64,000 nt of DNA. Source: an uncultured Candidatus Rokubacteria bacterium. GTDB taxonomy: Bacteria > Methylomirabilota > Methylomirabilia > Rokubacteriales > CSP1-6. Of this stretch, positions 11,502 through 48,008 are shown in pieces (positions within the stretch are counted from its first letter, which is position 1; every line of letters begins with the position of its first letter). A program made the translations under genes and the position numbers. The stretch lies in contig CAVXJS010000007.1 of assembly GCA_963762145.1 (NCBI GenBank), positions 224,001 to 288,000 of the forward strand, written 5' to 3'. Below the pieces are notes generated by a model that saw only the letters and a program-made list of their open reading frames with translations, was not told the DNA's origin and searched no databases.

Positions 11502-11507
11502 CGCCCG

Positions 11508-11516: not shown

Positions 11517-11543
11517 CAGAGCCCCGTCAACTCGCCGCCGTCC

Positions 11544-11572
11544 TTGAAAAAAATCGGTCAGTTCCGTATCGT
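11544..11572 (+). promoter_or_regulatory. sigma70-type promoter for the rightward hopanoid operon
   Basis: TTGAAA (11544-11549), 17-bp spacer, TATCGT (11567-11572) in the divergent intergenic region. Confidence 0.55.
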
Positions 11573-11596
11573 GAATGCGTGGCGCACCCGCACTCG

Positions 11597-12367: not shown

Positions 12368-12388
12368 CGCTGAAAGGGTTCGCGAGAC

Positions 12389-24832: not shown

Positions 24833-26901
24833 ATGGACATCGCCAAGATTCGCAATGTCGCATTCGTCGGCCACGGCGGCGTGGGCAAGACCTCCCTGGT
24901 CGAGGCGATCCTGTTCGCGTGCGGCGCCAGCACCCGGCTCGGCCGCGTCGACGACGGGACCACCACCACCGACTTCGACCCCGACGAGATCAAGCGCAAG
25001 ATCTCGCTCAACACCGCGGTCGGCTTCGCCGATCACCAGGGTCATCGGCTGAACCTCATCGACACGCCCGGATACGGCGACTTCGTGGCCGACGCGCGCG
25101 CGGGCCTGCGGGTGGCGGGCGCCGCGGTGGTGGTGGTGGACGCGGTGGCGGGCGTGCAGGTGCAGACCGAGAAGGTCTGGAAGTTCGCCAACGACTTCGC
25201 CCTGCCGCGCGCGATCGTGGTCAACCGGCTCGACCGCGAGCGGGCCGACTTCTTCCGCACCCTCGAGTCGCTGCAGAAGCGCCTCAAGGGCCGGCTCGTC
25301 CCACTGCAGCTCCCGATCGGGAGCGAGAGCGGCCTGAGCGGGGTGGTGGACCTGATCGCGCTGCGGGCCCTCGTGCTGGCCGACGGCAAGGTCAAGGCAA
25401 CCGAGATCCCGGCCGATCTCGTCGAGACCGCCAAGTCGTACCGCGAGAAGGTGGTCGAGGCCGCCGCCGAGACCGACGACGATCTGCTCGCGAAGTACCT
25501 CGAGGAGGGCTCGATCGGCGAGCCGGAGATGCTGGCCGCGCTGCGCCGCGCGATCACGTCCGGCGACCTCGTGCCCATCCTGGCCACCTCGGCCACCGCG
25601 GAATCGGGATCGCCCCGCTGCTCGACCTGCTGGTGAAGGAGTTCCCGTCGCCCGCAGACGCGCCGGAGGTGGAGGGGACGGAGCCGCGCACCAAGGCGGC
25701 GGCCCGGCGCGCCGCCGATCCCAAGGCCCCGCTCAGCGCGGTGGTGTTCAAGACGATCTCGGACCCGCACGTGGGCAAGCTTTCCGTCTTCCGCGTCTAC
25801 TCGGGGACGCTGCGGGCCGACAGCCAGGTCTACAACCCGCGCCGCGACAGCCGCGAGCGGATCGGACACCTCGGCTGGCTCTCCGGCAAGACCCAGAAGC
25901 CGGTGGAGGCCCTCGGCCCGGGTGAGATCGGCGTGGTCGCCAAGCTCAAGGACACCCTCACCGGCGACACCCTCTGCGAGGAGGCACATCCGGTGGTGCT
26001 GCCCGGCATCTCCTTCCCGGAGCCGGCGATCTCCTTCGCGATCCAGCCGAAGACGCGCGGCGACGAGGACAAGATCTCGACCGCGCTGCACCGCATGGCC
26101 GAGGAAGATCCCACCCTGCACCACCACTACGACCCGGAGACCAAGCAGCTCCTGGTCTCGGGCATGGGGCAGCTCCACGTCGAGGTGGTGGTGGAGCGGA
26201 TGAAGCGGAAGTACAACGTGGACGTGTCCTTGCTCCCGCCGCGCATTCCCTACCGGGAGACGGTCAAGGGGCGCGCCGAGGTGCAGGGCAAGTACAAGAA
26301 GCAGACCGGCGGGCGCGGCCAGTACGGCGACACCTGGATCCGCGTGGAGCCGCTCACGCGCGGCGGCGGCTTCGAGTTCGTCGACGACATCTTCGGCGGC
26401 GCGATCCCGCGCAACTTCATCCCCTCGGTGGAGAAGGGGGTGCGCGATTGCATGAAGCGGGGGATCCTCGCCGGCTACCCGGTGGTGGACCTCAAGGTCA
26501 CCCTCTACGACGGCTCCTATCACGACGTGGACTCGTCCGACATGGCCTTCCAGATCGCGGCCTCGATGGGCCTGCAGAAGGGCTTCATGGAGGCCAAGCC
26601 GTGCCTGCTCGAGCCGGTGATGAACGTGGAGGTCACCGCGCCGGCGGAGGGCGCGGGCGACGTCATCGGCGATCTGAACGGCCGGCGCGGCCGCATCGTG
26701 GGCATGGAGCCGGATGGTGACGTGGTGGCGGTGCGCGCGCAGGTCCCGATGTCCGAGATGCTCACCTACGAGTCGAGCCTGCGCTCGATGACCGGCGGCC
26801 GCGGCGGCTACTCGATGGAGTTCTCCCACTACGAGGAAGTGCCGAACCAGCAGGCCGAGAAAGTCGTCGCCGCCCACCGGGCCGAGAAAGAGAAGCACTA
26901 A
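24833..26901 (+). CDS. fusA: elongation factor G paralogue (EF-G2-like); one apparent frameshift near 25597
   Basis: GHGGVGKTS, DTPGYGDF and NRLD in one frame; GMGQLH, KKQTGGRGQYG and DGSYHDVDSSDMAF in another. One added base (acc-cgc-gga) restores the frame. Confidence 0.88.
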
Positions 26902-28128
26902 CGACGAGCTTCGTCACCCACGTCGCGTGCACGGTCTGCGACCGGCGCCACGACTCCGCAGCGTCTGCTCACCGTCTGCGAGCAGTGCGGCCAGATGCTC
27001 GCGGTTCGCTACGATCTCCCGCGGGTCGCGGCCGCCCTCTCCCGGGACGACCTCGCGCGCCGTCCGCCCGGGATGTATCGCTTCCGCGAGCTGCTGCCGC
27101 TCGACGACGGCGAGGAGCCGATCACGCTCGGCGAGGGCGGCACGCCGCTGCTCGCGCTGCCCCGGCTGGCCGCGCATCTGGGCCTGCGGCATCTCTGGGC
27201 CAAGGACGAAGGGCAGAATCCGACCGGCACGTTCAAGGCGCGCGGGCTCGGGATGGCGATCACGCGCGCGCGCACGCTCGGCGTCACCGGCCTCATGATC
27301 CCCTCGGCGGGCAACGCGGGCGGCGCCGCCGCGGTCTACGGCGCCCGCGCCGGCCTCTCCGTCGCGGTGGTGGTGCCGCGCGACACGCCGGAGGCCGCGG
27401 TCGCGGAGGCGATGCTGGCCGGCGCCCACGTCTTCACGATCGACGGCACCATCGCCACCGCCGGCCGCGCCATCGCCGCGGTCGCGCCGCGGATCGGCTG
27501 GTTCGACATGGCCACGCTCAAGGAGCCGTACCGGCTCGAGGGCAAGAAGACGATGGGCCTCGAGCTCGCCGAGCAGCTGGGATGGGATGCGCCGGACTGG
27601 CTCGTGTATCCGACCGGCGGGGGCACCGGCCTCGTCGGCATCTGGAAAGCCTACGAAGAGCTCGCGGCCATGGGCTGGGTCACCGCCGCGCCGCCCCGGT
27701 TCGTCGCGGTACAGGCCGAGGGCTGCGCGCCGCTCGCGCGCGCCTGGGAAGACAAGGCCGAGACCACCACCCCGGTGGAGAACCCGTTCACGAACGCGCC
27801 GGGCCTGCGCGTGCCCGGCCCCTTCGCGGGCCGGCAGATGCTGCGCATCTTGCGCGAGACCGGCGGCTTTCCCGTGACGGTCGGCGAGCTGGCCATCGTG
27901 GAGGCCCAGCGGCTGATGGCGCGGGTCGAGGGCATCTGGACGTCCCCGGAGGGGGCCGCGACGCTGGCCGCGCTCATCCGCATGCAGGAGGAGCGTCAGG
28001 TCGACGCCGCCGCCCGGATCGTGCTCATCCTGACCGGGGCCGGGATCAAGAATCCGCCGCCGCCGCTGGCTCCGCCGGTTCACCTGGAGCGGCCCGAGGA
28101 CATGTCGCCCTGGCTTGACAGATCCTGA
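26901..28128 (+). CDS. thrC: threonine synthase-like PLP enzyme; N-terminal indel near 26955
   Basis: N-terminal CTVC...CEQC, LGEGGTPL, NPTGTFKARG, SAGNAG, EGKKTMGLE and PTGGGTG. Confidence 0.8.
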
Positions 28129-28143
28129 TCGTCTCTGTAGATT
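28115..28143 (+). promoter_or_regulatory. sigma70-type promoter of the sulfur locus
   Basis: TTGACA (28115-28120), 17-bp spacer, TG adjacent, TAGATT (28138-28143). Confidence 0.6.
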
Positions 28144-28196
28144 CTCGTCGATCCCGGTCGAGATTGAGAATTCGCGGAGTCACCAGCGGAGGCGGC

Positions 28197-29510
28197 ATGA
28201 CGATGAGCGCGGTCACGCGACGGGCATTCCTGCGGTCCTCCGGACTCGGGCTGGGCGGCCTCGGGCTGGGCGGCCTCGGTCTCGGCGTGCTGGCCGGTGG
28301 CGGCCTGGGCGGATGCGCCACCGCGATGAAGGGCGACTTCGCCCCGAAGAAGGGCCGGCGCGTCGTCGTGATCGGCGGCGGCTGGGGCGGGGCGACCGCG
28401 GCGAAGTACGTGCGGCTCGATCGACCCGAGCATCGAGGTCGTCCTGATCGAGCCCAACCGGGAGTTCATCTCCTGCCCGTTCAGCAACCTCGTGCTGGCG
28501 GCGTGCGCACGATCGGCAGCATCACGATGGGCTACGACGGCCTGCGCAAGCACGGCGTGCAGGATGATCCACGAGACGGCCAGCCGCCATCGAGCCCGAT
28601 CAGAAGCGCGTGCGGCGTCGGCGAGGGCTATCTGCGAGTACGACCGGCTCGTCGTCTCCCCGGGCATCGAGTTCCAGTGGGAGCAGGTCGAGGGGCTCGC
28701 CCAGAACCAGGACAAGGTGCTCCACGCCTGGAAGGCGGGGCCGCAGACCGTGCAGCTCGCGCAGCAGCTGGCCAGCGATGCCCGACGGCGGCGTCTTCGT
28801 GCTCACCATCCCGCCCGTGGCGTACCGGTGCCCGCCCGGCCCCTACGAGCGCATCTCCAGGTCGCCTGGTATCTCAAGACGAACAAGCCGCGAGTCCAAG
28901 CTGATCGTGCTCGACGCGAACCAGAACATCGTGTCCAAGGCCGCGCTGTTCCGCGAGGCCTGGAAGGCGTATCCGAACATCGACTACCGCGCGCTCGAAC
29001 AAGGTGATCGCCGTCGATCCCGGGACGCGCGGAGGTCCGCACCGAGTTCGACAAGGTCAAGTACGACGTGCTCAACCTGATCCCGCCCCAGCGCGCGGGC
29101 GCCATCGCGGTGCAGGCGGACCTGGTCGGCGTCGACAAGCGCTGGTGCGAGGTCGACCAGGTGACCTACGAGTCGGTGAAGCAGCAAGGGCGTCCACGTG
29201 GTCGGCGACTCGACCATCGGCCTGCCGGTGCCCAAGTCCGGCAACGTCGCCAACGCGATGGGCAAGATCATGCGCGATCGCGGTCGTCAGCCTGCTCAAC
29301 GGCCGGCCGATGCCGCCGGTGGCGCCCGGCAACACCTGCTACAGCTGGGTGAGCGACCGCGAGGCCATCGCGGTGGTGAACGCGTACAAGATCGAGAACG
29401 GCAAGGTCGTGCAGATCGAGCAGAAGCTGACGCCGGTCGCAGAGCGCGCTCGGTGGCCCAGCGCGCGCTCGGCTGGGCCGCAGAGCATCTGGGCGGACAT
29501 GCTGGCATGA
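28197..29510 (+). CDS. fccB: flavocytochrome c sulfide dehydrogenase flavoprotein (FccB/SoxF-like); multiple indels
   Basis: Tat signal TRRAFLR; VVVIGGGWGGATAAKY, SCPFSN, YRCPPGPYER, LIPPQRAG, PKSG and NTCYS fragments across frames. Confidence 0.85.
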
Positions 29511-30140
29511 GCGCGATGCGGCACGACAGGAGCGCGATCGATCTGCGTAGCCTCGCGTGCTCGGCGCGTGACCGGGCGGTCGCCGCGCATCGCCGCCGGC
29601 TCCGGCCCGCTGGACGAGCGCGGCGCGTCCAAGTCGCTGACGTGCTCGGCGTGCCACGGCGCGGCGGGCAACAGCCGCTCCAGCGCCATGCCGATCATCG
29701 CCGGCCTGGACGCGGCGTACTTCAAGAAGCAGATCGACGGACTACGCGACCGGCAAGCGCCCCTCGCCCGAGATGGAGCCCTACGCCAAGCAGGTCTGCG
29801 AGCTCGGCGTGGACGACGTCGCGGCGTACTTCGCCGCCCAGCCGACGCGAGCCGACGCCGGTCGCAGCGACCGCGCGACGCGGTGGCGCGCGGGCGCGCG
29901 GCCTGCGGCCCAGTGCGCGGCCTGCCACGGCGCCGCAGGGCAAGGGCAATGCGGCCAAGCTCATCCCGAGCCTGGCCGGCCAGGCGCCGGGATATCCTGC
30001 GCGAGCAGATGGTGCTGTTCAAGCAGGACCGGCGCAATCCCGGGCGACGCCGACGCTCGACCGCGCTCAAGGCGCTGATGAAGACCATCCCCGACGCGAC
30101 GTTCGCCGACCTGGCCGCGTACTACTCGAGCCTGCGATAA
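29507..30140 (+). CDS. dihaem cytochrome c4/c553 (FccA-like); multiple indels
   Basis: Two CxxCH motifs (CSACH, CAACH) and PIIAGL / PSLAGQ repeats; ATGA-coupled to the flavoprotein gene. Confidence 0.8.
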
Positions 30141-30268
30141 AAATCGGAGGGGGCCTCGAGGCCGCCGCCGGCTCCGCAGGACGGGCGCGGCAAAGCCGGC
30201 GCTCGAACGGCGGACTCGCGCTATCATGGGCCCTTCATGAGCCACCTTGCGCTGGGGCAGGCGTCGGC

Positions 30269-31048
30269 GTGACGCCGACGCTGGAGATCGCGCTCTTCGT
30301 TCTCGGCTTCGTCGGCGCCTTCGTCTCCGGCCTGGTCGGCGTCGGCGGGGCCATCGTGATGATCCCGCTGCTCTACTACGTGCCGCCGCTGCTGGGCGTG
30401 GGCAGCCTGACGATCAAGGCGGTGGCCGGCCTCACCATGACCCAGGTGCTCGCGGCCGCGGCGGTGGGCGCGTGGAGGCACGGGCGGCGCGCGCTCGTTC
30501 ATCGCGGGCTGGCGCTGACCGGCGGCGCCGCGATGGCGGCGGGATCGCTCGCGGGCGCGGTCCTCGCGCTCCACGTGTCCGGGCGCGCGCTCCTCGTCGT
30601 CTTCGCGCTCATGACCACGATCGGCGCTGCCGCTCATGCTCGTGCCACCCGCCCGCGCCGCCGGCGGGGACGAGGGTCGACGACCGTTCGACCGCGCGCG
30701 CGCGATCGCATCTCCGGCGGCCATCGGCTTCATGGCCGGGCTGGTCGGGCGCGGGCGGGGCGTTCCTCGCGGTGCCGGTGCTGATGGCGTGATCTGCGTC
30801 CCGATGCGGCTGGCCATCGGGACGTCGCTGGCCATGGTGAGCGTCGTCCGCCGTGACTGGGCTTCTTGGGCAAGGTGCTCACGGGCCAGGTGCCGTTCGG
30901 GCCGGCGCTGCGCGGTGGTGCTGGGCTCGCTCGCCGGCGCGCCGGTCGGCGGCCGGCTCAGCCGGCGCGTGCCGGTGCCGGTGCTGCGCGGCGTGCTCGC
31001 GGGCTCGATCGCGCTGGTCCATGCTCGCGCGTCTGGTACGACGCCTGA
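30269..31048 (+). CDS. TauE/SafE family sulfite exporter; multiple indels
   Basis: GAFVSGLVGVGGAIVMIP and a second repeat GFMAGLVGAGGAFLAVP; PMRLAIGTSLA. Confidence 0.8.
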
Positions 31049-31075
31049 TGCTGATCGCCGAGAGGGGACACGCGC

Positions 31076-32648
31076 GTGCGCTACGGCTTCGTGATCGACC
31101 AGCGGAAGTGCATCGGCTGCCACGCCTGCACGGTGGCCTGCAAGGAGGAGAACCAGGTCCCGCTGGGCGTCAACCGCACGTGGGTCAAGTACATCGAGAA
31201 GGGCACGTTCCCGGACACGCGGCGCTACTTCACGGTGATGCGCTGCAACCACTGCGACAACGCGCCCGTGCGTGACGATCTGCCCCACGGTGGCGCTCTA
31301 CCGCCGGGCCGACGGCATCGTGGACTTCGACGGCGACGCGCTGCATCGGCTGCAAGTCGTGCATGCAGGCGTGCCCGTACGACGCGCTCTACATCGATCC
31401 GGAGACGCACACCGCGGCCAAGTGCCACTACTGCGCCCACCGCGTGGAGGTCGGGCTCGAGCCGGCGTGCGTGGTCGTCTGCCCGGTGCAGGCGATCATG
31501 CCCGGCGACCTCGACGATCCCGGCGAGCACGATCGCGCGGCTCGTCGCCTCGCAGCAGGTCCAGGTGCGCAAGCCCGAGCAGGGGACGCGGCCGAAGCTC
31601 TTCTACCTCGGCGCGGAGGCGGCGGCGCTCACGCCGGGGATGCAGGAGCGGCGCGGCGGCTACGTGTTCGCGCAGGGCGGGAGCATCCCGAGCCCGGGCC
31701 GGCGCAACCTCGCCGCTGACGCAGCCGCTCGGCCGCCGATCACCGCCGCGACCGACGGATGGATCTGCTGCGCCTCGCGCGCACCGTCTACGACGTCGCG
31801 CATCCCGAGCGGCCCTGGGGCTGGAAGGTCGCCGCGTACCTCTGGACCAAGTCGATCGCGGCGGGCGCCTTCCTGGTCGCCGCGCTCGGCGCATCGCGGG
31901 CCGGCTTCCTGCACCGCGGACGCCCTGACCGGGCTGGCGGTGCCCGCGATCGGCCTGGCGTTCCTCGCTGCTGACGTGTCTCCTGCTCGTGTTCGACCTC
32001 AAGCGGCCGGAGCGATTCCTCTATCTGGTCTTCAAGCCCAACCCGCGCTCGTGGCTCGTGCTGCGGCGGCTTCGATGCTCTTCGCGGCGGGAGTCGCTGG
32101 GCGCTGTGGCTCGCTGGCCGGCCTCATCGGCAGCCTCGTGGCGCTGCACCTGCTGGCCTGGCCGATGGCGGTGGTCGGCGGCGGCGACCGCGGGCTACAG
32201 CGCGTTCCTCTTCGGCCAGGCCGAGGGGCGCGACTTCTGGCAGAGCCCGCTGCTGCTGCCGCACCTGCTGGTGGCCGCGCTCGTCGGCGGCTCGGCCAGC
32301 CTGCTGCTCGCCGCGCGCGCGCTCGGCAGCGCGTCGTTCATCGTGGGCGGCCTGGGGCTCGTGCTCTGGGCCTCGCTGCTGGTGAGCGCGCTGGTGCTGG
32401 GAGCCGAGCTCTTCGGCGCGCACGGCACGGAGGAGGCGCGGCGGGCGGCGCGGCTCCTGACCCACGGGCCCCTGCGCCTGCCGCTCTGGGGCGGCGTGGC
32501 GGCCGCGGGCATCGCGCTGCCGCTGGTGCTGCTGCTGAGCGCGTCGGTGCCGTTCGGCTCCGAGCTGGCCGCCGGCCTGGCGCTGGCCGGCCTCTGGCTC
32601 TGGGAGGAGCTCTGGATCCGCGCCGGCCAGATGCTCCCGCTCAGCTAG
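31076..32648 (+). CDS. 4x[4Fe-4S] electron-transfer subunit fused to an NrfD/PsrC-type membrane anchor; multiple indels
   Basis: CIGCHACTVACK, CNHCDNAPC, CIGCKSCMQACPY and CHYCAHR; then PWGWKVAAYLWTKSIAAG, DLKRPERF and C-terminal WIRAGQMLPLS. Confidence 0.8.
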
Positions 32649-32651
32649 GCC

Positions 32652-32732
32652 GGGTCAGGTCTTGCATTACGACATTTGCCGCGCGCGAGTGCACACTCGA
32701 GGGAGGAAATGTCGTAATGCAAGACCTGACCC
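32652..32732. repeat. MITE/REP-like element with perfect 26-bp inverted repeats
   Basis: gggtcaggtcttgcattacgacattt (32652-32677) is the exact reverse complement of aaatgtcgtaatgcaagacctgaccc (32707-32732); inner hairpin cgagtg-ca-cactcg. Confidence 0.92.
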
Positions 32733-35492
32733 CAAGTGAGCCGTTGCATCCGGTGGCGCAGCGACTCGCGGCGCCGGCGTCCGGGCTCGAGCGGTTTCCG
32801 CCGCCGGCGCGGTGGGACGACTGGGAGGAGTACGACGCGCAAGGCCTGGCCGGCGCAAGGTCAAGCGGCAGTTCCAGCTGATCCCGACCATCTGCTTCAA
32901 CTGCGAGGCGGCCTGCGGGCTCCTCGCCTACGTGGATCCGCAGACGCTGCAGATCCAGAAGTTCGAGGGCAACCCGGTGCACCCGGGCAGCCGCGGGCGC
33001 AACTGCGCCAAGGGCCCGGCGACGCTCAACCAGATCACGGATCCCGAGCGCATCCTCTACCCGCTGCGGCGGGCCGGGAAGCGGGGCGAGGGCAAGTGGG
33101 AGCGGGTGACCTGGGACGAGGTCGCTCGACGACATCGGCGGGCGCATCCGGAAGGCCCTGGTCGAGGGCCGCCAGAAGGAGGTCATGTACCACCTCGGGC
33201 GCCCGGGCCACGAGCTGATCTACCTCCAGCGCGTCTTCCACGCCTGGGGGATCGACGGCCACAACAGCCACACCAACGTCTGCTCGGCCTCCGCGCGCGC
33301 GGGCTACGCGTTCTGGCACGGGCTCGACCGGCCCTCGCCCGACCACAGCAAGGCGCGCTTCATCCTGCTGCTCTCCTCGCACCTCGAGGCCGGCCACTAC
33401 TTCAACCCGCACGCCCAGCGCATCATGGACGGCAAGATGGCGGGGGCCAAGATCTGCGTGCTGGATACGCGGCTGAGCAACACCGCGTCGATGGCCGACT
33501 ACTGGCTGTCGCCCTGGCCGGGCACCGAGGCCGCGCTGCTCCTGGCCATCGCGCACTGCATGCTGCGCGACGGCACGTGGGACCGCGAGTTCGTCCGCCG
33601 CTGGGTGAACTGGGAGCAGTACCTGCGTGAAGAGCGGCCGGACCTGCCGGTCACGATCGGCGTCCTTCGAGGACGCGCTCAAGACGCTCTACGCCGAGTA
33701 CACCCCCGCGTTCGCGGAGAGCGAGTCGGGCGTGCCCGCCGCGCGCATCGAGGAGGTGGCGCGCGAGGTCGGCCGCGCGGCCAGCGCGCTCTCCACCCAC
33801 GTCTGGCGCAACGCCGCCGCGGGCAACCTGCACGGCTGGGAAGTCGCGCGGGCGCTCGAGCTGGTGGTGGTGCTGGCGGGCGCGGTGGCCACGCCGGGCG
33901 GCACCGCGCCCTCCGGCTGGAACAAGGCGGTGCCGACCCCGCCGATGATGCCGCCGCCGGGCAAGATCTGGAGCGAGCTCCTGATGCCGCGGGAGTACCC
34001 GCTCGCGTTCTTCGAGATGAGCTTTCTCCTGCCGCACTTCCTGAAGGAAGGCCGCGGCAAGCTCGCGATGTACTTCACCCGCGTCTACAACCCGGTGTGG
34101 ACCAACCCGGACGGCATGTCGTGGATCGAGATGCTGACCGACGAGGCCAAGGTCGAGCGTCACGCCTGCCTCACCCCGACGTGGAGCGAGACCGCATGGT
34201 TCGCCGACTACGTGCTGCCGATGGGGCACGCCTCCGAGCGGCACGATCTCATGAGCCAGGAGACGCACGCCGCGCGCTGGATCGGCTTCCGCCAGCCGGT
34301 GCTGCGGGTGGCGCTCGAGAAGCAGGGCAAGATCTTCGACCTCACCTGGCAGGCGCACGAGGCGGCCGGGCTCGGGCAGGTGTGGGAGGAGGACGAGTTC
34401 TGGATCGAGCTCTCGTGGCGCATCGATCCGGACGGCGCCCTCGGGATCCGCAAGTACTTCGAGTCGCCCTATCGCCCCGGCGAGAAGCTGCGCATCGAGG
34501 AGTTCTACCGCTGGATCTTCGAGCACAGCGTGCCGGGCCTGCCCGCGGCCGCCGAGCGCGAGGGCCTGACCCCGCTCGCGTACATGCGCAAGTTCGGCGC
34601 GTTCCTGGTGCAGGAGAACGTCTACCGCACCCACGAGACGTCGGTCCCCGCGGGGGGAGGGCGTCGAGGTGGACGGGCAGTGGATGGGCGGCTTCCCGAC
34701 CCCGTCGCGCAAGCTCGAGTTCTACTCGAGGACGCTCAAGGACTGGAAGTGGCCGGAGCACGCGGTGCCCACCTACGCGCGCAGCCACGTGCACTGGCGG
34801 GAGATCGAACCGGGCCGCGGGCGAGATGGCGCTCCTGCCCACCTTCCGGCTGCCGACCCTGATCCACTCGCGCTCCGGCAACGCCAAGTGGCTCTACGAG
34901 ATCTCCCACAACAACCCGCTCTGGCTGCATCCCGAGGACGCGGCGCGCTGGGACGTGAAGACCGGCGATCTGCTGAAGGTCACGACCGAGATCGGCCACT
35001 TCGTGGACCGGGTCTGGGTCACCGAGGCGATCCGGCCCGGCGTGCTCGCGTGCTCGCATCATCTGGGACGCTGGCGGCTCGCCGAGCAGACCGGCGGCGA
35101 GCGCTGGTCCACCGCGCTCGTGACGCTCGAGAACTCGCGGCCCGGGGAGTGGCGCCTGCGCCACGTGCACGGGGTGCGGCCCTTCGAGAGCGCGCGACCC
35201 CGATTCGCAGCGCGTGTGGTGGGAGGACGCGGGCGTGCACCAGAACCTGACCTTCCCGGTGCACCCGGACCCGGTGAGCGGCCAGCACTGCTGGCACCAG
35301 AAGGTGACCGTGAGCCGGCCCGGGCCGAACGACCGCTACGGCGACGTGGTCGTGGACACCAACAAGTCCTTCGAGGTCTATCGCAAGTGGCTCGCGATGG
35401 CCCGGCCCGCGCCCGGACCCGACGGGCTGCGCCGGCCGCTCTGGCTGCCGCGCGCGTTCAAGCCCGACGCGTCGGCCTACCGCATCGAGTGA
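32717..35492 (+). CDS. molybdopterin (Mo/W-bisPGD) oxidoreductase catalytic subunit without Tat signal; multiple indels
   Basis: CFNCEAACG...NCAKG [4Fe-4S] motif, ERILYPLRRAG, SHTNVCS, WSETAWFADYVLP and LWLHPEDA. Confidence 0.85.
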
Positions 35493-35497
35493 AGCCG

Positions 35498-35525
35498 TTG
35501 ACAAGGACGCGATCGAAGGCATCCT
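35498..35525 (+). promoter_or_regulatory. putative promoter for a leaderless soxY transcript
   Basis: TTGACA (35498-35503), 16-bp spacer, CATCCT (35520-35525), 7 nt, then the ATG at 35533. Confidence 0.45.
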
Positions 35526-35532
35526 GGAAGCC

Positions 35533-36018
35533 ATGACCGCCCGGATCACGCGCCGCGCATGGCTGGGTCTCGCCGCGCTCGCCGCCGCGGTGGCGGGGTG
35601 GCGCCCGCGACCCGCGCGGGCTCAGGGCAACCTCGCCAACCTGGCCCCGGAGGAGCCGATCGCCGAGACGATGAAGCGGCTCTTCGGCGGCCGCTCGATC
35701 AAGAATGGCGCCTCGCTCATCACCATCGACATGCCGCTCATCGCGGAGGACGGCGCCGCGGTGCCGATCGCGGTCGAGGTGAAGTCGCCGATGACCCCGG
35801 AGAATCACGTCAAGGCGCTGTACATCCTGGCCGAGAAGAACCCGCGGCCCCTCAACGTGAAGATCACCCTCACCCCCGCCGCGGGGCAGGCCTACGCGGC
35901 GACCAATCTGCGCCTGGCCGACAGCGGGCCGGTCCGCGTCGTCGCCGAGACCGGCGACGGGACGCTCTGGGCCGCCACCCGCGAGGTCCGCGTCACGGTG
36001 GCGGGCTGCGCGGCCTGA
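35533..36018 (+). CDS. soxY: SoxY-like sulfur carrier protein
   Basis: Tat signal (TRRAWL), PLIAEDGAAVPI, EKNPRP and C-terminal VRVTVAGCAA. Confidence 0.85.
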   Translation: MTARITRRAWLGLAALAAAVAGWRPRPARAQGNLANLAPEEPIAETMKRLFGGRSIKNGASLITIDMPLIAEDGAAVPIAVEVKSPMTPENHVKALYILAEKNPRPLNVKITLTPAAGQAYAATNLRLADSGPVRVVAETGDGTLWAATREVRVTVAGCAA

Positions 36019-36021
36019 GCC

Positions 36022-36351
36022 ATGGCGGACATCGGGACCGTCAAGCTGGCCGCGCCGGCCAGCGTCCGCCGCGGCAGCGTGGCGCGGGTGCGCGCCCTGG
36101 TCATCCACCCCCAGGAGCGCGTGGAGCGGCAGGGAGGCCGGTCGGTGGATCGCAACTACCGCTTCGTCAACCGCGTCGTGGTAACGTACCTCGGCCGCGA
36201 GGTCGCGGTGATCGAGCCGTCCACGGCGGTCAGCGAGAACCCGACGTTCACGATTCCATTCCGGGCGACCGAGACGGGACCGCTCAAGGTGACGTTCGTC
36301 GATTCGCACGGCGTGAAGTTCGAGGGCACCGCGGAGGTCAAGGTCACGTGA
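36022..36351 (+). CDS. soxZ: SoxZ-like protein
   Basis: VRALVIHPQE, AVSENPTF and LKVTFVDSHG; follows soxY. Confidence 0.85.
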   Translation: MADIGTVKLAAPASVRRGSVARVRALVIHPQERVERQGGRSVDRNYRFVNRVVVTYLGREVAVIEPSTAVSENPTFTIPFRATETGPLKVTFVDSHGVKFEGTAEVKVT

Positions 36352-36890
36352 GACTGGCACTGGGGTTGTTGCTGGCCGGAAGCCTCGCCTGGGCCGCGCC
36401 CGCCGCGGCCGACGACATCGAGCGGTACGCGCGCGAGCTCCAGCTCAACGCGCTACCCGGCGAGCGGGCCCCGGGGTTCTCGCTGCCGAAGGTCGACGGC
36501 GGCAAGACGTCGCTGGCCGAGCAGCAGGGCAAGGTCGTGCTCGTCTACTTCTGGGCCACCTGGTGCGGGTACTGCCGCAAGGAGCTGCCCGTCGCGATCG
36601 AGAAGGTCGTCCGCGAGCGGAAGGGACAGCCCTTCACGGTGCTCGCGGTGAGCATCGAGGAGCCGCGGGATCTGGTGGCCAGCTACGTGAAGGGCGCCGG
36701 CGTGACCTCGTCCGTGCTCCTCGACGGCGACGGGGCGGTCGCGCGGGAGTACCGGGTGCGGGCCACCCCGACCACCATCGTGATCGGCCGCGACGGGCGC
36801 CTGGTCGCCCGGGCCGCGGGCACGCGCGAGTGGGACGGGAAGGTGGGCCGCGCCTTCCTCGACGCCCTGGTGGCCGCGCCGGCGAAGTAG
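36348..36890 (+). CDS. TlpA/ResA-family periplasmic thioredoxin
   Basis: GTGA overlap; signal peptide; FWATWCGYCRKELP and YRVRATPTT. Confidence 0.88.
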   Translation: MRLALGLLLAGSLAWAAPAAADDIERYARELQLNALPGERAPGFSLPKVDGGKTSLAEQQGKVVLVYFWATWCGYCRKELPVAIEKVVRERKGQPFTVLAVSIEEPRDLVASYVKGAGVTSSVLLDGDGAVAREYRVRATPTTIVIGRDGRLVARAAGTREWDGKVGRAFLDALVAAPAK

Positions 36891-36908
36891 TCTCGGGGCC
36901 GCCGACCG

Positions 36909-38654
36909 ATGGCCGCCGATCTCGTCGTCGACTCCCTCGACACCGACATCCTCGTGCTCGGCGCGGGCGGCGCGGGCCTCTGCGCCGCGCTCCACGCCGC
37001 GGACCGCGCGCCCCGGCTCACCGTGACGGTGGCGGTCAAGGGGCTGCTCGGCCGCGCCGGCTGCACCCGCATGGTGCAGGGTGGCTACAACGCGGTCCTC
37101 GCGGCTCCCGACTCGCTCGACGCGCACCTGCTCGACACCCTGCAGGGCGGGGCGTGGATCAACGATCAGGAGCTGGTGTGGACCCTGGTCCACGAGGCGC
37201 CCGGCCGCGTGCTCGAGCTGGAAGCCCGCTACGGCTGCTTCTTCGACCGCCATCCCGACGGGCGGATCCACCAGAAGCCCTTCGCGGGGCAGAGCCACGA
37301 CCGCACCATCCACAAGGGAGACCTCACCGGCATCGAGATCATGAACCGCCTGACCGAGCAGGTCTGGCGGCGCCCGTCCATCCGCCCGCTCGAGGAGCAC
37401 CGCGCGGTGGAGCTGCTGCGCGCCGACGGGGGCCACGTGGGCGGGGTGCTGCTGCTCGACGTGCGCCGCGGCACCTTCCTGGTGGTGCGCAGCCGCGCCA
37501 TCCTGCTCGCGATGGGCGGCGGGCCGACCATGTACAAGGTCATCGCGTGCTCGGCCGACAAGTCCTCCGACGGCATCGCGCTCGGCCTGCGCGCGGGCGT
37601 GCGGCTGCGCGACATGGAGATGGTGCAGTTCCACCCGACCGGGCTCATCGTGCCCAACTCGCTCATGACCGGGGCGCTCCTCGAGGAGGGCCTGCGTGGA
37701 GCGGGCGGCCGCCTGCTGAACGGCCGCGGCGAGCGATTCATGCAGCGCTACGACGCCACGCGCCTCGAGCGGTCCACCCGCGACCTGGTGGCGCGCGCCT
37801 GCCACACCGAGGTGCTGGAGGGCCGCGGCACCGCCAACGGCGGCGTGTGGATCGACGTGTCGCACCTGGGCGCCGAGGTGGTCGAGAAGAGCTTCCGGGG
37901 CATGGTGCGTCGCTGCCGCGACTTCGGCCGCGACCTCGCGCGCGAGCCGGTCGAGGTGGGGCCGACCGCCCACTTCATGATGGGCGGCATCGTGATCGAC
38001 CGCGCCTGCCGCACCGACGTGGAGGGTCTCTTCGCGGCCGGCGAGGACACCGGCGGCGTGCACGGGGCCAACCGGCTCGGCGGCAACGGCGTCGCGGAGT
38101 CCACCGTGTTCGGCGGGATCGCGGGCGACGTGATGGCGGACTGGGTGGTCGGCCGCCCGCTGCCGCAGCTCTCGCGCGCCCACGTGGACGCCGCGGTGGC
38201 GGCCACCACCGCGCCGCTCGAGCGCAGCGAGGGCAGCGAGAGCCTCTACGCGCTGCAGGCGCGGCTCCGGCAGGTCATGTGGGACCACGTGGGGCTGATC
38301 CGCGCGGGCGAGGGCCTCAGGCTGGCGCTGGCCGAGATCGAGGACATCTCGGGCCGCCTCGAGAGCGTCGCGGTGCGGGGCGGCGGGGCCTACAACCTCG
38401 CGTGGCAGGACTGGATCAACCTCCAGAACCAGGCCACCGCCTCGTGGCTCATCGCCCGCAGCGCGCTCGAGCGCACCGAGAGCCGCGGCTCGCACTTCCG
38501 GCGCGACTTCCCCGACACCGCGAGTGAGCCGGTGGCCGTGCTCGCCGGCTTCGCGGACGGCTCGGGCCCGAAGGTGTGGACCGAGCCGGTGCGCTACACG
38601 CGGCTCAAGCCGGATGCCGCGCGCCGGCCCACCACGGTGGACATCGGGGACTGA
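36909..38654 (+). CDS. SdhA/FrdA/TfrA-superfamily flavoprotein (non-canonical)
   Basis: GAGGAG, GCTRMVQGGYNA, QFHPTG, TRDLVAR, AHFMMGG and HGANRLGGN. Confidence 0.85.
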   Translation: MAADLVVDSLDTDILVLGAGGAGLCAALHAADRAPRLTVTVAVKGLLGRAGCTRMVQGGYNAVLAAPDSLDAHLLDTLQGGAWINDQELVWTLVHEAPGRVLELEARYGCFFDRHPDGRIHQKPFAGQSHDRTIHKGDLTGIEIMNRLTEQVWRRPSIRPLEEHRAVELLRADGGHVGGVLLLDVRRGTFLVVRSRAILLAMGGGPTMYKVIACSADKSSDGIALGLRAGVRLRDMEMVQFHPTGLIVPNSLMTGALLEEGLRGAGGRLLNGRGERFMQRYDATRLERSTRDLVARACHTEVLEGRGTANGGVWIDVSHLGAEVVEKSFRGMVRRCRDFGRDLAREPVEVGPTAHFMMGGIVIDRACRTDVEGLFAAGEDTGGVHGANRLGGNGVAESTVFGGIAGDVMADWVVGRPLPQLSRAHVDAAVAATTAPLERSEGSESLYALQARLRQVMWDHVGLIRAGEGLRLALAEIEDISGRLESVAVRGGGAYNLAWQDWINLQNQATASWLIARSALERTESRGSHFRRDFPDTASEPVAVLAGFADGSGPKVWTEPVRYTRLKPDAARRPTTVDIGD

Positions 38655-38983
38655 TGCCGAAGCGCCCCCGGCGGATCCTGCGGCGCCGGTGGGCCACCAC
38701 CGAGGGCTGGCGCGGCACGCGGGCCGGGATGTGGGCCTGGCTGGTGCAGCGCACCGCCGCGGTCGCCCTCCTCGGGGTGATCGTGCTCCACGTGCGCACG
38801 CCGTACTGGCGCGCGGTGCAGGGGGTGCTGCTGGCCCTCGTGCTCGTGCACGGACTGCTCGGCGCGCGGGCGATCCTTCTCGACTTCGGCCTGCCGGTGC
38901 GCTGGCACCGGCTGCTCCTCGTGATCGCGATCGCGCTGGCCGTGCTCATCTTCGCCGCGGTCTGGGGGTGGCGATGGTCCTGA
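38654..38983 (+). CDS. small SdhC/D-like membrane anchor
   Basis: TGATG overlap; three TMs with WAWLVQRTAAV, a His in IVLHV, and HGLLGARAILLD. Confidence 0.75.
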   Translation: MPKRPRRILRRRWATTEGWRGTRAGMWAWLVQRTAAVALLGVIVLHVRTPYWRAVQGVLLALVLVHGLLGARAILLDFGLPVRWHRLLLVIAIALAVLIFAAVWGWRWS

Positions 38984-39669
38984 AGGTCTTCCGCTGGTCT
39001 CCCGGCTTCCGGGAGCGGATCCAGCGTTTCTGGGTTCCCGCCCGGGAGGGCATGACGGTGCTCGACGCGCTGGTGGACGCCCAGCGCCGGCTCGATCCGA
39101 CGCTGGCCTTCCGCTATGCCTGCCGCGTCGGCATGTGCGGCTCGTGCGGCATGGTCATCAACGGACGCGAGCGCTGGGCCTGCCGCACCCTGCTCAAGAG
39201 TCTCAAGACCCGAATCGTGACCGTGCGTCCGCTCTACCATTTCCCGCTCGTCCGCGACCTGGTCGTCGACCTGGCGCCGCTCGCGGAGCAGGCCGCGCGG
39301 GTGGGCGCGACCTTCGTGCCGAAGGAGGAGCCGGCCGCCTTCGCCCCGATCGGCGGGCAGGCGCCGGAGCGCCAGGGGATCGATCCCGCGATCGAGTGCA
39401 TCGGCTGCGGCATGTGCGTCTCGGCATGCACCATGGTGGCGAACGACGAGCGCTTCCCGGGCCCCGCGGCGCTGAACCGCCTCTTCACGGTGGACACGGA
39501 CAGCCGCGACGCCGGCCAGGCCGACCGCGCGGCGGTGCTGGTCTCGGAAGACACGCTCATGCGCTGCCACAGCCAGGCGAACTGCACCGACGTCTGCCCG
39601 ATGGAGATCTCGCCGACCGAGTCCATCCTGGCGCTGCGGCGCCGCGCGGTGCGCGGCCTGCTCGGCTGA
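38974..39669 (+). CDS. SdhB/FrdB-like iron-sulfur subunit
   Basis: CRVGMCGSC, CIGCGMCVSAC and CHSQANCTDVCP. Confidence 0.88.
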   Translation: MVLKVFRWSPGFRERIQRFWVPAREGMTVLDALVDAQRRLDPTLAFRYACRVGMCGSCGMVINGRERWACRTLLKSLKTRIVTVRPLYHFPLVRDLVVDLAPLAEQAARVGATFVPKEEPAAFAPIGGQAPERQGIDPAIECIGCGMCVSACTMVANDERFPGPAALNRLFTVDTDSRDAGQADRAAVLVSEDTLMRCHSQANCTDVCPMEISPTESILALRRRAVRGLLG

Positions 39670-39681
39670 CCGCGCGGGACG

Positions 39682-40112
39682 GTGAGCCGCCGCGGGCTGC
39701 CTCTTCTGCCGCATCGCGCGCTCGGAAGAGCCGGGCGCCCTCGTGCTCGAGACGCGCGCGGTGGCCGCGTTCCTCGATCACCGGCCGCTGTTCCCCGGCC
39801 ACTGCCTCGTGATCCCGCGCGAGCACGTGGAGACGCATCGTCGACCTGCCCGCCGCGCTGACCGCGCCGCTCTGGGACGCGGTGCGCGCGGTCGCGCGCG
39901 CGGTGGAGGAGGCGCAGGGCGCCGACGGCTCCTTCGTGGCGGTCAACAACCGGGTGAGCCAGAGCGTGCCGCACCTGCACGTGCACGTGGTGCCGCGGCG
40001 GCGGGGCGACGGCCTCCGCGGCTTCTTCTGGCCGCGGGGGCGCTACGGCTCCACGGAGGAGATGGAGGAGACGCGCCGGCGCATCGCGGCCGCGGTGGCG
40101 TCGGCCCCGTGA
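39682..40112 (+). CDS. HIT family nucleotide hydrolase; indels
   Basis: CLFCRI, AFLDHRPLFPGHCLVIP and SQSVPHLHVHVVPR. Confidence 0.85.
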
Positions 40113-40116
40113 GGGC

Positions 40117-41913
40117 TCACGCGTCCGCGCGCAGGCGCGCGGGGCGCCCCGCCTGGGACAGGTTGCAGGCGCTGTTGACGAGGGCGATGTGGGAGAGGGC
40201 CTGGGGGAAGTTGCCGAGCTGGCGGCGGGCTCGGGGATCGTACTGCTCGGCGAGCAGCCCCACGTCGTTGCGCAGCGCGAGCAGCCGCTCGTAGAGCCGG
40301 CGCGCCTCGTCGCCGCGCCCGAGCAGGACCAGGTTGTCCACCAGCCAGAACGAGCAGGCGAGGAAGAGCGCCCTCGCCCGGCGGGAGGCCATCCACGCCG
40401 GACTCGGTCGGGTAGCGCTGGACGAGCCCGTCCACGAGGAGCTCCCGCTCGATCGCGGCCACCGTCCCGCGCACCCGCGGATCCTCGGCGGGCAGGAAGC
40501 CCACGAGCGGGATCATGAGGAGGCTCGCGTCGAGCTCGGACGCGCCGTAGGACTGCACGAACGCGTTGCGGCCCGGATCGAAGCCGCGCCGGCAGACGTC
40601 CTCGTGAATCGCGGCCCGGAGCGCGCGCCACCGATCCGTCGGGGCCCGCCCGGGGGCCGTCTCGCCCAGCTTCACCATCCGGTCGGCGGCCACCCACGCC
40701 ATCACCTTGGAGTGGGTGAAGTGCCGGCGCGGGCCGCGCACCTCCCAGATGCCCTCGTCCGGCTCCGTCCACACCGATTCGAGGTGCCGCATGAGCGTGT
40801 TGATGCACGCGCCAGTCGTCTCCATCCGGCGCGAGCCCGGCCCGGGCGCCCGCGTAGGTCGCGTCGAGCATCTCGCCCCAGACGTCCAGTTGAAACTGAG
40901 CATGGGCCGCGTTGCCCACGCGCACCGGGGCGGAGCCCTCGTACCCGGGCAGCCACGGCAGCTCGAGCTCGGTGAGTCGCCGCTCGCCCCCGAGGCCGTA
41001 CATGATCTGGAGCTGGGCGGGCGTGCCCGCGAGGGCGCGGAGCAGCCACTGCCGCCAGGCGCGCGCCTCGTCGAGATAGCCGCCCAGGATCAACGCGTAG
41101 AGCGCGAAGGTCGCGTCCCGGACCCAGCACAGGCGGTAGTCCCAGTTGCGCACGCCGCCCAGCCGCTCGGGCAGCGAGGTGGTCGGCGCGGCGACGATGC
41201 CGCCGGTGGGCTCGTAGATCATGGCCTTGATCGTGATGAGGGAGCGCAGCACCGCGTCGCGGTCGGGGCCCTCGTAGGTGCAGCGCCCGGCCCACTCGTC
41301 GCCACCACGCCTCGGTCTCCGCGATGGCGCGGTCGCGGCTCGACCGGCGCCGGCGGCGGCAGGTGCGACGGATGCCAGGCCATCGACAGCGAGCGCGTGC
41401 TCGCCGGCCGCGACGGTGAAGTCGGCGACGGTGGTGAGCCCTTCGCCGTGGAGCGGCACGTCGGTGGTGAGGAGGAGCGCGTCGGGCCCCGCCACCGCCC
41501 GGATGCCCCGGGCCGAGCGGCGGACCCAGGGCACCACCGAGCCGTAGTCCATGCGAATCACGAGCTCCATGCGCATGGCGACCGTGCCCCGGACGCCCTG
41601 GACCTGGCGCACGACCACCGGCGGCCCGGCGCGCTGGGGCATGCAGTCCACGACGGTGGCGGCTCCGGTGTCCGTCTCGAAGGTGGTCTCCAGGATGAGC
41701 GTGTCGTCGCGGTATCGGCGCTGCGCCGCGCGCGCCCCCGTCGCGCGGCGCGAGCCTCCAGCGCCCGTGCTCGGGCCCGCCCAGCAGCGCGGCCAGGCAC
41801 GCCGGGGAGTCGAAACGGGGCAGACAGAGCCAATCGATGGAACCGGCGCGAGAGATCAGCGCCGCGGTCTCGCCGTCGCCGATCAGCGCATAGTCTTCGA
41901 TGGGGTCGGACAT
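40117..41913 (-). CDS. glycoside hydrolase family 15 (trehalase/glucoamylase-like); multiple indels
   Basis: [45 protein letters not shown] and GNFPQALSH. Confidence 0.88.
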
Positions 41914-41962: not shown

Positions 41963-42047
41963 AAGTACGGATTTTATCTAGTCGCCTCCCGCCTCTCACC
42001 AGGTGGGAGGCGATACGTGTGTGTACCGCCGGTCGAGGAGGCCCACC

Positions 42048-46530
<4,483 letters not shown>

Positions 46531-46586: not shown

Positions 46587-47060
46587 ATGGCGAAGGCGAT
46601 TCCGGACGGGTACCACACCGTGACCGCGGCCCTGACCGTCAAGGACGGCGCCGCGGCGATCGAGTTCTATCAGAAGGCCTTCGGCGCGCGCGAGATCATG
46701 CGCGTGAACGGCCCCGAAGGCAAGATCATGCACGCCGAGATCCAGGTCGGCGATTCCCGCGTCATGCTGGCCGACGAGAGCCCGGGGATGGGTTGCGTTG
46801 CGCCGGTCTCGGTGGGGCAGACCACCGGCTCGCTCTACCTGTACGTACCCGACGTGGACGCCGCCTTCAAGCGCGCGGTGGGGGCGGGCGCCAAGGTGGC
46901 CATGCCGGTCACCGACATGTTCTGGGGCGACCGCTTCGGCGCGGTCGACGATCCCTCCGGCCACCGCTGGGGGCTCGCCACCCACGTCGAGGATCCGAGC
47001 CCCGAGCAGATGGCGCAGCGGCAGAAGGAGTTCTTCGCCTCGATGGCCAGCAAGAAGTAG
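46587..47060 (+). CDS. VOC/glyoxalase (PhnB-like) family protein
   Basis: IPDGYHTVT, AIEFYQKAFGA, MHAEIQVGDS and DMFWGDRFG..DPSGHRW. Confidence 0.9.
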   Translation: MAKAIPDGYHTVTAALTVKDGAAAIEFYQKAFGAREIMRVNGPEGKIMHAEIQVGDSRVMLADESPGMGCVAPVSVGQTTGSLYLYVPDVDAAFKRAVGAGAKVAMPVTDMFWGDRFGAVDDPSGHRWGLATHVEDPSPEQMAQRQKEFFASMASKK

Positions 47061-47064
47061 CCGG

Positions 47065-47907: not shown

Positions 47908-48008
47908 GGGTGAACAACGCCCCCTCACCCTGCCCTCTCCCCCTCCGGGGGCGAGGGTTCGAGGCTCCTTCTCCCCTTTGGGGAGAGGGCTGGGGTGAGG
48001 GGCGATGA
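47904..48008 (+). other. 34-codon mini-ORF spanning an inverted REP doublet, with ATGA overlaps to both neighbours
   Basis: MRVNNAPSPCPLPLRGRGFEAPSPLWGEGWGEGR*; AGGAGG at 47891-47896; ATGA at 47904-47907 and 48005-48008. Confidence 0.5.
47918..48004. repeat. inverted REP-like doublet
   Basis: cccctcaccc...ccctctccccc and ctcccctttggggagaggg...gggtgagggg. Confidence 0.8.

Follow-up and report, generated by a model that had tools for sequence, protein, structure and literature searches.

A putative sulfur-oxidation locus built from known modules and conserved within a genus of soil Rokubacteria

The window analysed here is a stretch of 64,000 nucleotides (C7:224001-288000) from G000, a soil Rokubacteria metagenome-assembled genome (MAG) of 6.26 Mb in 25 contigs that is 88% complete. 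Between positions 28115 and 39669 it carries a row of sulfur-redox genes followed by a succinate-dehydrogenase-like trio, and Pfam detects all of the families on the plus strand in a single co-directional order. Because the window has a G+C content of 70%, raw lists of open reading frames are crowded with shadow frames; families were assigned by running Pfam on every stop-to-stop piece of the plus strand, and Pfam and NCBIfam also on the intact orthologues of a relative (locus L003). The gene families, order and direction given in the original prediction were all recovered in this way, but it had missed that the first five genes, namely fccB, the dihaem cytochrome gene, tauE, the gene for an iron-sulfur (Fe-S)/NrfD fusion and the molybdenum (Mo) gene, are none of them open frames in this assembly. 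We consider it fairly likely that the row is a genuine, genus-conserved sulfur-oxidation locus of soil Rokubacteria, built from known modules, and that its frameshifts are artefactual. It is not demonstrably a single new pathway; the modules are FccAB, TauE with a PSRLC3/Soe-like enzyme, and SoxYZ with TlpA. The features of the row are the following (window coordinates).

28115..28143, plus strand: sigma-70-like promoter match (TTGACA-17-TAGATT), the sole match in 27900-40200, where 0.2 are expected; a consensus match only.
About 28197..29510, plus strand: fccB/soxF-type flavocytochrome c sulfide dehydrogenase flavoprotein (Pfam FCSD_central, FCSD-flav_bind); frame-broken here.
About 29507..30140, plus strand: dihaem c-type cytochrome, FccA/SoxE-like, with two CxxCH motifs; frame-broken here.
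About 30250..31060 (approximate), plus strand: TauE/SafE-family anion (sulfite) transporter (PF01925), its two halves in different frames.
31076..32648, plus strand: four-cluster Fe-S domain (TtrB/NrfC/DsrO-like) fused to an NrfD-type membrane anchor (Pfam Fer4, NrfD); frame-broken here.
32652..32733, no strand assigned: near-perfect hairpin repeat of 82 nucleotides, resembling a repetitive extragenic palindrome or miniature inverted-repeat transposable element (REP/MITE-like), with a fold of -60.3 kcal/mol.
32717..35492, plus strand: catalytic subunit with a Mo bis-pyranopterin guanine dinucleotide cofactor (Mo-bisPGD), PSRLC3/SoeA-like (Molybdop_Fe4S4, Molybdopterin, Molydop_binding), split over at least four frames here.
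35533..36018, plus strand: SoxY-type carrier with a twin-arginine (Tat) signal, intact (PF13501, 117 bits).
36022..36351, plus strand: SoxZ-type partner, intact (PF08770, 58 bits).
About 36360..36890, plus strand: TlpA/ResA-type periplasmic thiol-disulfide oxidoreductase, intact, start uncertain (AhpC-TSA, Redoxin).
36909..38654, plus strand: SdhA/FrdA-type flavoprotein, best match TfrA, intact (NF004900, TIGR01812).
38651..38983, plus strand: three-helix membrane anchor of 110 amino acids, intact, recognised by hydropathy and a weak Sdh_cyt match (22.9 bits, cut-off 25.8).
38962..39669, plus strand: SdhB-type Fe-S subunit, intact (TIGR00384, 183 bits, cut-off 88).
40001..40019, plus strand: terminator-like hairpin with a T-rich tail, weak in that 1 was found and 2.4 are expected by chance.

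Over 28.1-35.5 kb the phase of third-position GC changes every 200-600 nucleotides, with clean frames on either side. In an eight-way MAFFT alignment, which compares the window with three to seven genus relatives, it shows 71 private indel events, 67 of which are not multiples of three. Such a pattern might reflect real decay, in which the stretch from fccB to the Mo gene would consist of pseudogenes that are perhaps redundant given a sox-type cluster on contig C11 and a SoxC pair on contig C21 of the same genome (see below). The five genes are indeed unreadable as assembled, and G000 alone among the 21 genomes inventoried carries both SoxA and SoxC above the model cut-offs, so redundancy is conceivable. 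Natural decay of bacterial genes is, however, deletion-biased and piles up stop codons, whereas the window has 47 private single-base insertions (28414-35193), mostly outside homopolymers, against 8 single-base deletions. Under a stricter rule, by which an indel is private only if all other aligned sequences agree, frame-breaking insertions and deletions number 45 and 10 in G000, 5 and 1 in G013 (40 contigs) and 4 and 1 in G008 (30 contigs), with 0-2 insertions and 0-1 deletions in each of five many-contig assemblies. Projecting the window, one alignment column at a time, onto the reading frames of L003 gives 2,322 codons for the five genes, with no stop among them. The projected FccB (0 stops in 419 codons) and Mo subunit (0 in 922) share 83.8% and 95.8% amino acid identity with their L003 orthologues, and the cytochrome, TauE and the Fe-S/NrfD fusion 72.3%, 75.6% and 90.7%, respectively; these identities (72-96%) lie within or slightly below the range of other genus members.

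Two features of the projection weigh against a pure artefact. The non-synonymous fraction in projected fccB, cytochrome gene and tauE is slightly raised, at 0.46-0.59 compared with 0.32-0.54 in relatives, and the amino acid identity of the same three products is somewhat below that of most relatives. Both could stem from misalignment around insertions, from extra substitution errors or from some relaxed selection. Similar damage is nevertheless scattered over the genome: a frame-tracking hidden Markov model, applied to 1,754 half-overlapping 7-kb windows of G000, gives a median of 4 same-strand phase switches, and 58 of these windows have 16 or more, 16 being the value for the focal region. 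Near the row, the gene for EF-G (24833-26898) is split at about 25.6 kb, its GTPase domain and its domains II-V lying in different frames, and the aconitase gene (42003-44290) is split at about 43.06 kb. Since similar patches occur across the 25-contig MAG, we read the frameshifts as very probably assembly errors, with uncorrected long-read insertions as their probable source, and the organism's own five genes as most likely intact; decay of these genes appears very improbable. Any tally of gene content or pseudogenes based on this MAG will be skewed by such patchy indel errors. Also private to the window, and either real or artefactual, are an in-frame tandem duplication of 30 nucleotides in the FccB signal peptide (28254-28283), which adds an extra GLGLG repeat, and a 13+36-nucleotide insertion at 30147-30195 between the cytochrome gene and tauE.

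All 18 genus genomes sampled contain DNA that matches the region 28000-36900, and in three of them (G013, G015 and G005, at 85-89% identity) the match spans all or almost all of it. The genes are intact in the many-contig relatives L003, L004, L005, L006 and L008. Both findings bear out the original claim of a real co-directional sulfur locus. In relatives the intact FccB orthologues (L003, L004) measure 421 amino acids, the cytochrome 215, TauE 261, the intact Fe-S/NrfD fusion 516-523 and the intact Mo subunit 921-953. Within the genus, soxY follows the Mo gene in every locus where soxY was called. Conservation of the gene order, which was originally proposed as a check, thus holds for the genus, but not throughout: in G004 no fccB lies upstream of tauE, and the order gives way to other contexts in a sister family and in other phyla, as set out below. 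The sub-blocks can thus come apart, which weakens the original interpretation.

The protein features of the row are consistent with the proposed modules. The L003 orthologue of FccB matches PF21706 (129 bits) and PF09242 (46.7 bits) and bears a Tat signal (SRRGFLRASG), and that of the cytochrome matches Pfam Cytochrom_C, with a Sec-type signal and a weak match to PdsA (52 bits); the FCSD domains and CxxCH motifs are also recognisable in the window's own fragments. TauE of L003 is covered by PF01925 over positions 1-236 of 237 (133.9 bits). RR motifs are present in the N-termini of FccB, SoxY and TlpA, and the periplasmic location foreseen for FccB, the cytochrome and SoxY agrees with their Tat, Sec and Tat signals, respectively. 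SoxY scores just below its NCBIfam cut-off (TIGR04488, 119.5 bits; cut-off 125) and SoxZ below its own (TIGR04490, 53 bits; cut-off 76), while the TlpA-like protein reaches 84.6 bits with the ResA model and 67 bits with the TlpA model, each under its cut-off. The C-terminal arm of SoxY reads VTVAGCAA in the window and its close relatives, not GGCGG. Nine more distant Rokubacteria loci have a SoxY with the canonical GGCGG arm beside the Mo enzyme, and the link between the Mo enzyme and SoxYZ therefore predates the AGCAA variant.

The Mo subunit contains an FS0 Cys motif and a Cys ligand for Mo (HTNVCSAS, aligned with HSSVC of ArrA and SLCTAP of PsrA), and its nearest solved structures are ArrA and Thermus PsrA. 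Read directly, the N-termini of the Mo subunit and of the Fe-S/NrfD fusion are without a signal peptide: the Fe-S domain opens at residue 1 with the first cluster motif and continues into the NrfD domain, and the Mo subunit has neither a Tat signal nor a hydrophobic stretch ahead of the FS0 cysteines. Because both lack a signal peptide, both should face the cytoplasm, in agreement with the Tat-less, cytoplasm-facing enzyme of the original prediction. The ESM Atlas returned only generic "formate dehydrogenase / molybdopterin oxidoreductase" clusters, and a search for named unfused SoeB-like proteins gave 120 mostly partial, generically named Fe-S proteins with no tie to SoeB. On balance, we suggest that the Mo enzyme works like SoeABC or PSRLC3, that is, in cytoplasmic sulfite oxidation; the SoeABC-like role first proposed for it is likewise the best reading of the enzyme. 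No assay of the two-gene, inward-facing Mo enzyme was found in the literature covered, outside which most subscription papers lie.

We infer the substrates, the direction of sulfite transport and the hand-over between the modules as follows. In the periplasm, the Tat-exported FccB/SoxF and the dihaem cytochrome c would oxidise sulfide to sulfane sulfur, with the electrons passing to cytochromes. A TauE-family channel would move sulfite across the membrane, on the cytoplasmic side of which the two-gene, Cys-ligated Mo-bisPGD enzyme with its anchor-fused Fe-S subunit would oxidise sulfite to sulfate and reduce quinone. SoxYZ, with its derived AGCAA arm, would bind sulfur or sulfite species in the periplasm, where the TlpA-like thioredoxin may hold the SoxY cysteine reduced.

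How far these modules belong together can be judged from a wider scan of species-level genomes with a four-sequence alignment as query, in which 555 of 635 pattern matches encode relatives of the Mo subunit. Counts below refer to the loci of the best 80 of these 555, all of them in MAGs and at 60-95% identity, with labels that cover at least seven phyla (Rokubacteria, Binatia, Acidobacteriota, "Deltaproteobacteria", Planctomycetota, Chloroflexota/Ktedonobacterales, Chlorobi/Chlorobiaceae and a Contendobacter); cultured SoeABC organisms are absent from these 80, and proteins that share 80% or more identity with the Mo subunit carry NCBI-derived labels of Rokubacteria or Methylomirabilota. In 68 of these 80 loci the gene immediately before the Mo gene encodes the Fe-S/NrfD fusion; of the 12 that remain, 10 have less than 800 nucleotides of upstream DNA. 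A Chlorobiaceae-labelled MAG (L108) encodes a related Fe-S/NrfD fusion and Mo subunit that share 60% and 49% identity with their Rokubacteria counterparts. SoxY with SoxZ occurs in 12 of the 80 loci, FccB with the cytochrome in 9, TlpA in 12, the SdhA-like flavoprotein, following TlpA, in 7, and the phosphosulfolactate synthase ComA in 2, in each case on Rokubacteria-like contigs only (Mo identity at least 77%), bar weak 23-30% matches in three loci; in the 53 loci that are not Rokubacteria-like, neither SoxYZ nor the FccB-cytochrome or TlpA-SdhA pairs were found beside the Mo enzyme. Four contigs with Mo genes 73-95% identical to the Rokubacteria one come from MAGs labelled Limnocylindria (L029), Dormiibacterota (L031), Binatia (L046) and Saccharimonadales (L093). 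L029 carries a SoxY-SoxZ-TlpA-SdhA flank, L031 TlpA alone, and L046 FccB, cytochrome, TauE and a distal SoxYZ, and all four contigs are likely mis-binned in the public MAGs.

In a sister family, ComA (315 bits, cut-off 280) and a protein of 332 amino acids are encoded ahead of the Fe-S/NrfD-Mo pair in four loci, one of which (L025) has a confirmed TauE; gene calling with Pfam found no SoxYZ, TlpA or FccB in the flanks. Downstream of the Mo gene, L023 and L024, which reach beyond it, encode a thiamine pyrophosphate (TPP) enzyme of the PRK08327 family, and L024 (G021:C5, 4123-17791) also an indolepyruvate-oxidoreductase-like protein and ComD/E-like proteins below the cut-offs. A possible reading of this context is an organosulfonate (sulfolactate/sulfopyruvate) route coupled to sulfite handling. 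A ComA-type context of the Fe-S/NrfD-Mo pair was seen in L024 and also in L023, L025, L027, L054 and L058.

The modules might be mere syntenic neighbours with no joint function, and the Mo enzyme a cytoplasm-facing reductase or oxidase whose substrate is thiosulfate, polysulfide, tetrathionate or a compound without sulfur. Among named or solved proteins its nearest relatives (PhsA, ArrA, PsrA) are reductases, the sub-blocks separate in relatives, and the flanks in other phyla are mostly unrelated, for example a CoA-transferase with TctA, histidine kinases or M20 peptidases. Nevertheless, TauE recurs beside the Mo enzyme in four further phyla, and other sulfur genes recur there too. In 50 loci of other phyla, 9 out of 89 directly adjoining genes are sulfur-related, comprising four TauE, one DUF1634 protein (the usual partner of TauE), two metallo-beta-lactamase-rhodanese fusions of the persulfide-dioxygenase type, one ArsR-rhodanese and one DsrE. 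In Rokubacteria, SoxYZ follows the Mo gene both in the genus loci where soxY was called and, at a distance of about 35-610 nucleotides, in nine of the Rokubacteria-like loci that the wider scan brought up, and in the window the genes are spaced 40-100 nucleotides apart, with one promoter-like and one terminator-like site around the whole run. These sulfur neighbours in other phyla, the TauE of Rokubacteria and the ComA of the sister family all point to sulfite as the common theme, and we regard a mere neighbourhood around an enzyme of some other function as unlikely. The persulfide-dioxygenase-type fusions stand directly upstream of the Fe-S/NrfD-Mo pair in two Ktedonobacterales MAGs (L094, 193-1662; L099, 5700-7136), and the DsrE gene lies downstream of the pair in L100.

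Several observations weigh against a sulfite-oxidising locus all the same. The Mo subunit matches no NCBIfam equivalog, its best score being 177 bits to PhsA (cut-off 694), and a crude hydropathy and positive-inside count left the orientation of the NrfD domain unsettled. Beyond the two genes themselves, no neighbour is widely conserved among the best 80 loci, and most genes directly adjoining the pair in other phyla, 80 out of 89, bear no relation to sulfur. The enzyme is likened to PSRLC3 by architecture, and to SoeABC by architecture and context, and its membership of either family is putative. Furthermore, ComA in its known direction consumes sulfite, so that the ComA context fits sulfite but not necessarily its oxidation.

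The Sox inventory, taken over 21 genomes that are incomplete MAGs (63-100% complete), places further sox genes in G000 outside the window:

G000:C11:232001-252000 (locus L015), 5476-12588: second sox-type cluster with a 2Fe-2S plus MoCoBD (xanthine-dehydrogenase-family) enzyme, a second FccB, SoxX, a SoxY paralogue, SoxZ and SoxA.
G000:C21:1088001-1104000 (locus L028), 7472-9401, minus strand: isolated SoxC and cytochrome c, with third-position GC of 0.81-0.86 compared with a genome norm of about 0.95.

On C11, SoxA (219 bits, cut-off 110) and SoxX (87.8 bits, cut-off 61) lie beside the second SoxYZ, whose SoxY ends in AACLEDGI (the "AACIE-arm" type) and whose SoxZ is frameshifted; no SoxB is present in this cluster. 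On C21, SoxC (571 bits, cut-off 420) adjoins a cytochrome c of 182 amino acids, and this stretch may have been acquired recently, given that its third-position GC is below the genome norm. SoxB (TIGR04486) exceeds its cut-off in none of the 21 genomes; the best match in G000 (131.6 bits, cut-off 550) is an ordinary 5'-nucleotidase between thrS and tonB, a housekeeping context. As the genomes are incomplete MAGs, the missing SoxB is not proof of absence. None of the 12 further genomes sampled from the genus has a SoxA above cut-off, and for the sampled genus members the models run found no Sox-like set apart from the window-type locus. The locus had been described as lacking SoxAXB and SoxCD, with a full sox cluster elsewhere as the finding that would speak against an alternative pathway. 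The first part stands within the window, and for SoxB across all 21 genomes, whereas elsewhere in the genome C11 supplies SoxX and SoxA together with further copies of SoxYZ and FccB, and C21 the SoxC-cytochrome pair, a candidate SoxCD. The adverse finding is thus made in part, with SoxB as the one component missing. The search for dsr genes proposed at the same time found no DsrA in G000.

With SoxB undetected, the row could be imagined as one integrated, SoxB-independent carrier pathway across the membrane. FccAB would oxidise sulfide and load sulfane sulfur onto the SoxY arm, and SoxCD-type enzymes, in genomes that have them, would convert it there to an S-sulfonate; the TlpA-like thioredoxin would free sulfite reductively, in place of the hydrolytic sulfate release by SoxB; TauE would carry the sulfite inward, and the fused-anchor PSRLC3-type Mo enzyme would make sulfate and reduce quinone. 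The SdhA-like flavoprotein with its anchor and SdhB-like subunit could then re-oxidise quinol with fumarate. In addition to the SoxB result, the tight linkage of SoxYZ to the Mo enzyme across Rokubacteria lineages, including the nine wider loci with a GGCGG arm, fits such a scheme, as does the physiological link between SoeABC and SoxYZ in Allochromatium to which the title of Dahl et al. 2013 reportedly refers. All of its steps are putative, however, and the incompleteness of the MAGs makes the missing SoxB inconclusive. Moreover, TlpA directly follows the Mo gene with no SoxYZ match in five loci (L030, L031, L038, L039 and L055), with the SdhA-like gene next in L030, L039 and L055, and the originally proposed resetting of SoxYZ by TlpA is therefore weakened. 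We consider a single integrated pathway improbable. If it were true, the pathway with a fumarate-linked SdhA-like enzyme would allow sulfur oxidation without oxygen or nitrate, and it would account for the SoxYZ requirement of SoeABC-dependent sulfite oxidation in Allochromatium. The modular sulfur-oxidation locus remains our preferred reading.

The SdhA-like trio, which begins 19 nucleotides after tlpA, had been proposed as a further quinone-linked sulfur complex, but no sulfur link emerged. The flavoprotein scores below all equivalog cut-offs (573 bits for NF004900, TfrA, with a cut-off of 718; 424 bits for TIGR01812), and the trio sits in a tricarboxylic acid cycle neighbourhood with aconitase, a class-I fumarase (46798-48580) and a second succinate dehydrogenase. 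The latter, a succinate dehydrogenase/fumarate reductase-type unit at 48580-51146 right after the fumarase gene, consists of a five-helix membrane protein of 272 amino acids without a Pfam match, followed by SdhA (TIGR01812, 502 bits). Most likely the trio is a succinate:quinone or quinol:fumarate oxidoreductase, syntenic and perhaps co-transcribed with the row, and we do not take it as a sulfur enzyme. A thiol:fumarate reductase was considered for the TfrA-like SdhA and rejected; its partner is an ordinary SdhB of 235 amino acids, not a TfrB with Hdr-like domains. Co-transcription of the whole row including the trio is possible, because the sole promoter-like site (28115-28143) and the sole terminator-like site (40001-40019) bracket the run. 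Of the separate promoters originally placed at about 28115, 30222 and 35498, the scan supports the first, with no sigma-70-like match near the other two.

In the hairpin element between the fusion gene and the Mo gene, the 3' arm includes the GGAGG of the Mo gene as well as its ATG (32717), for which reason the element may influence translation initiation of that gene or provide its first codons (MQDLT). The repeat occurs at about 43 places in G000, with many matches on both strands in genus genomes. Upstream, the row is preceded by the following gene, syntenic in relatives:

26995..28128, plus strand: threonine-synthase-family gene (NCBIfam NF006050, 465 bits, cut-off 303).

The N-terminal region of this gene is affected by a private one-nucleotide insertion at 26958, and ThrC lies upstream of the Mo-enzyme locus in 8 of the 80 wider loci. 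Downstream of the row, a GH15/trehalase-like gene on the minus strand (40120-41913) also appears split.

Rokubacteria are abundant in soils, and to our knowledge their sulfur metabolism is known from gene lists only. Soil metagenome runs contained at most 0.40 of the sampled sequence words, and no habitat or strain claim is based on those shares. The two-gene, inward-facing Mo enzyme is highly conserved, at 60-95% identity in MAGs labelled with at least seven phyla (best 80 of 555). In addition, the genetic link between the Mo enzyme and SoxYZ in Rokubacteria mirrors the unexplained dependence in Allochromatium indicated by the title of Dahl et al. 2013, and the Rokubacteria genes could therefore be used to test cooperation between a periplasmic carrier and a cytoplasmic sulfite oxidase.

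The canonical Sox system comprises SoxXA, SoxYZ, SoxB and SoxCD, plus SoxEF and the thioredoxins SoxS/W in Paracoccus. The row resembles it in SoxY, SoxZ, the adjoining FccB/SoxF-type flavoprotein, the dihaem cytochrome and the periplasmic thioredoxin-fold protein. It differs in that no SoxB was detected in the 21 genomes, that SoxXA and SoxC lie off-locus and exceed their cut-offs only in G000, and that SoxY and SoxZ fall below the NCBIfam cut-offs, with an AGCAA arm in the genus. The FccAB module has both FCSD domains, a Tat signal and an adjoining dihaem cytochrome, and nothing sets it notably apart from known FccAB; it is not always tied to the other modules, as G004 without fccB upstream of tauE illustrates. 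According to the accessible text of PMC5103831, Rokubacteria carry Sox genes, and some Sox proteins were detected in a soil proteome. Neither this locus nor a fused SoeBC was found described in the literature covered (most subscription papers lie outside it). The original view of the combination as an unrecognised one is weakened all the same, in that the two-gene Mo enzyme fits PSRLC3 and a SoeABC-SoxYZ link stands in the title of Dahl et al. 2013.

In the accessible parts of the respective papers, PSRLC3 of green sulfur bacteria is encoded by two genes (PMC5473276) and is regarded as an alternative sulfite-oxidising system (PMC5473276, PMC6338057); a biochemical characterisation was not found in these parts or elsewhere in the literature covered. 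The Rokubacteria enzyme shares this two-gene architecture, and a related pair is present in the Chlorobiaceae MAG, but it is joined to TauE, SoxYZ, TlpA and FccAB and not to the Dsr system. The A and B subunits of SoeABC are hypothesised to face the cytoplasm in the accessible part of PMC8076601. With SoeABC of Allochromatium vinosum and Aquifex aeolicus the enzyme has in common a membrane-bound Mo/Fe-S/NrfD complex, whose A and B counterparts here lack signal peptides. SoeABC has three subunits, as far as the accessible sources describe it, whereas here B and C form one polypeptide of 516-523 amino acids that is encoded upstream of A. SoeABC of Allochromatium is said to be functionally linked to SoxYZ. 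The individual modules of the row are thus already known, and in the genomes compared the Mo enzyme is linked to SoxYZ, FccAB and TlpA only in Rokubacteria.

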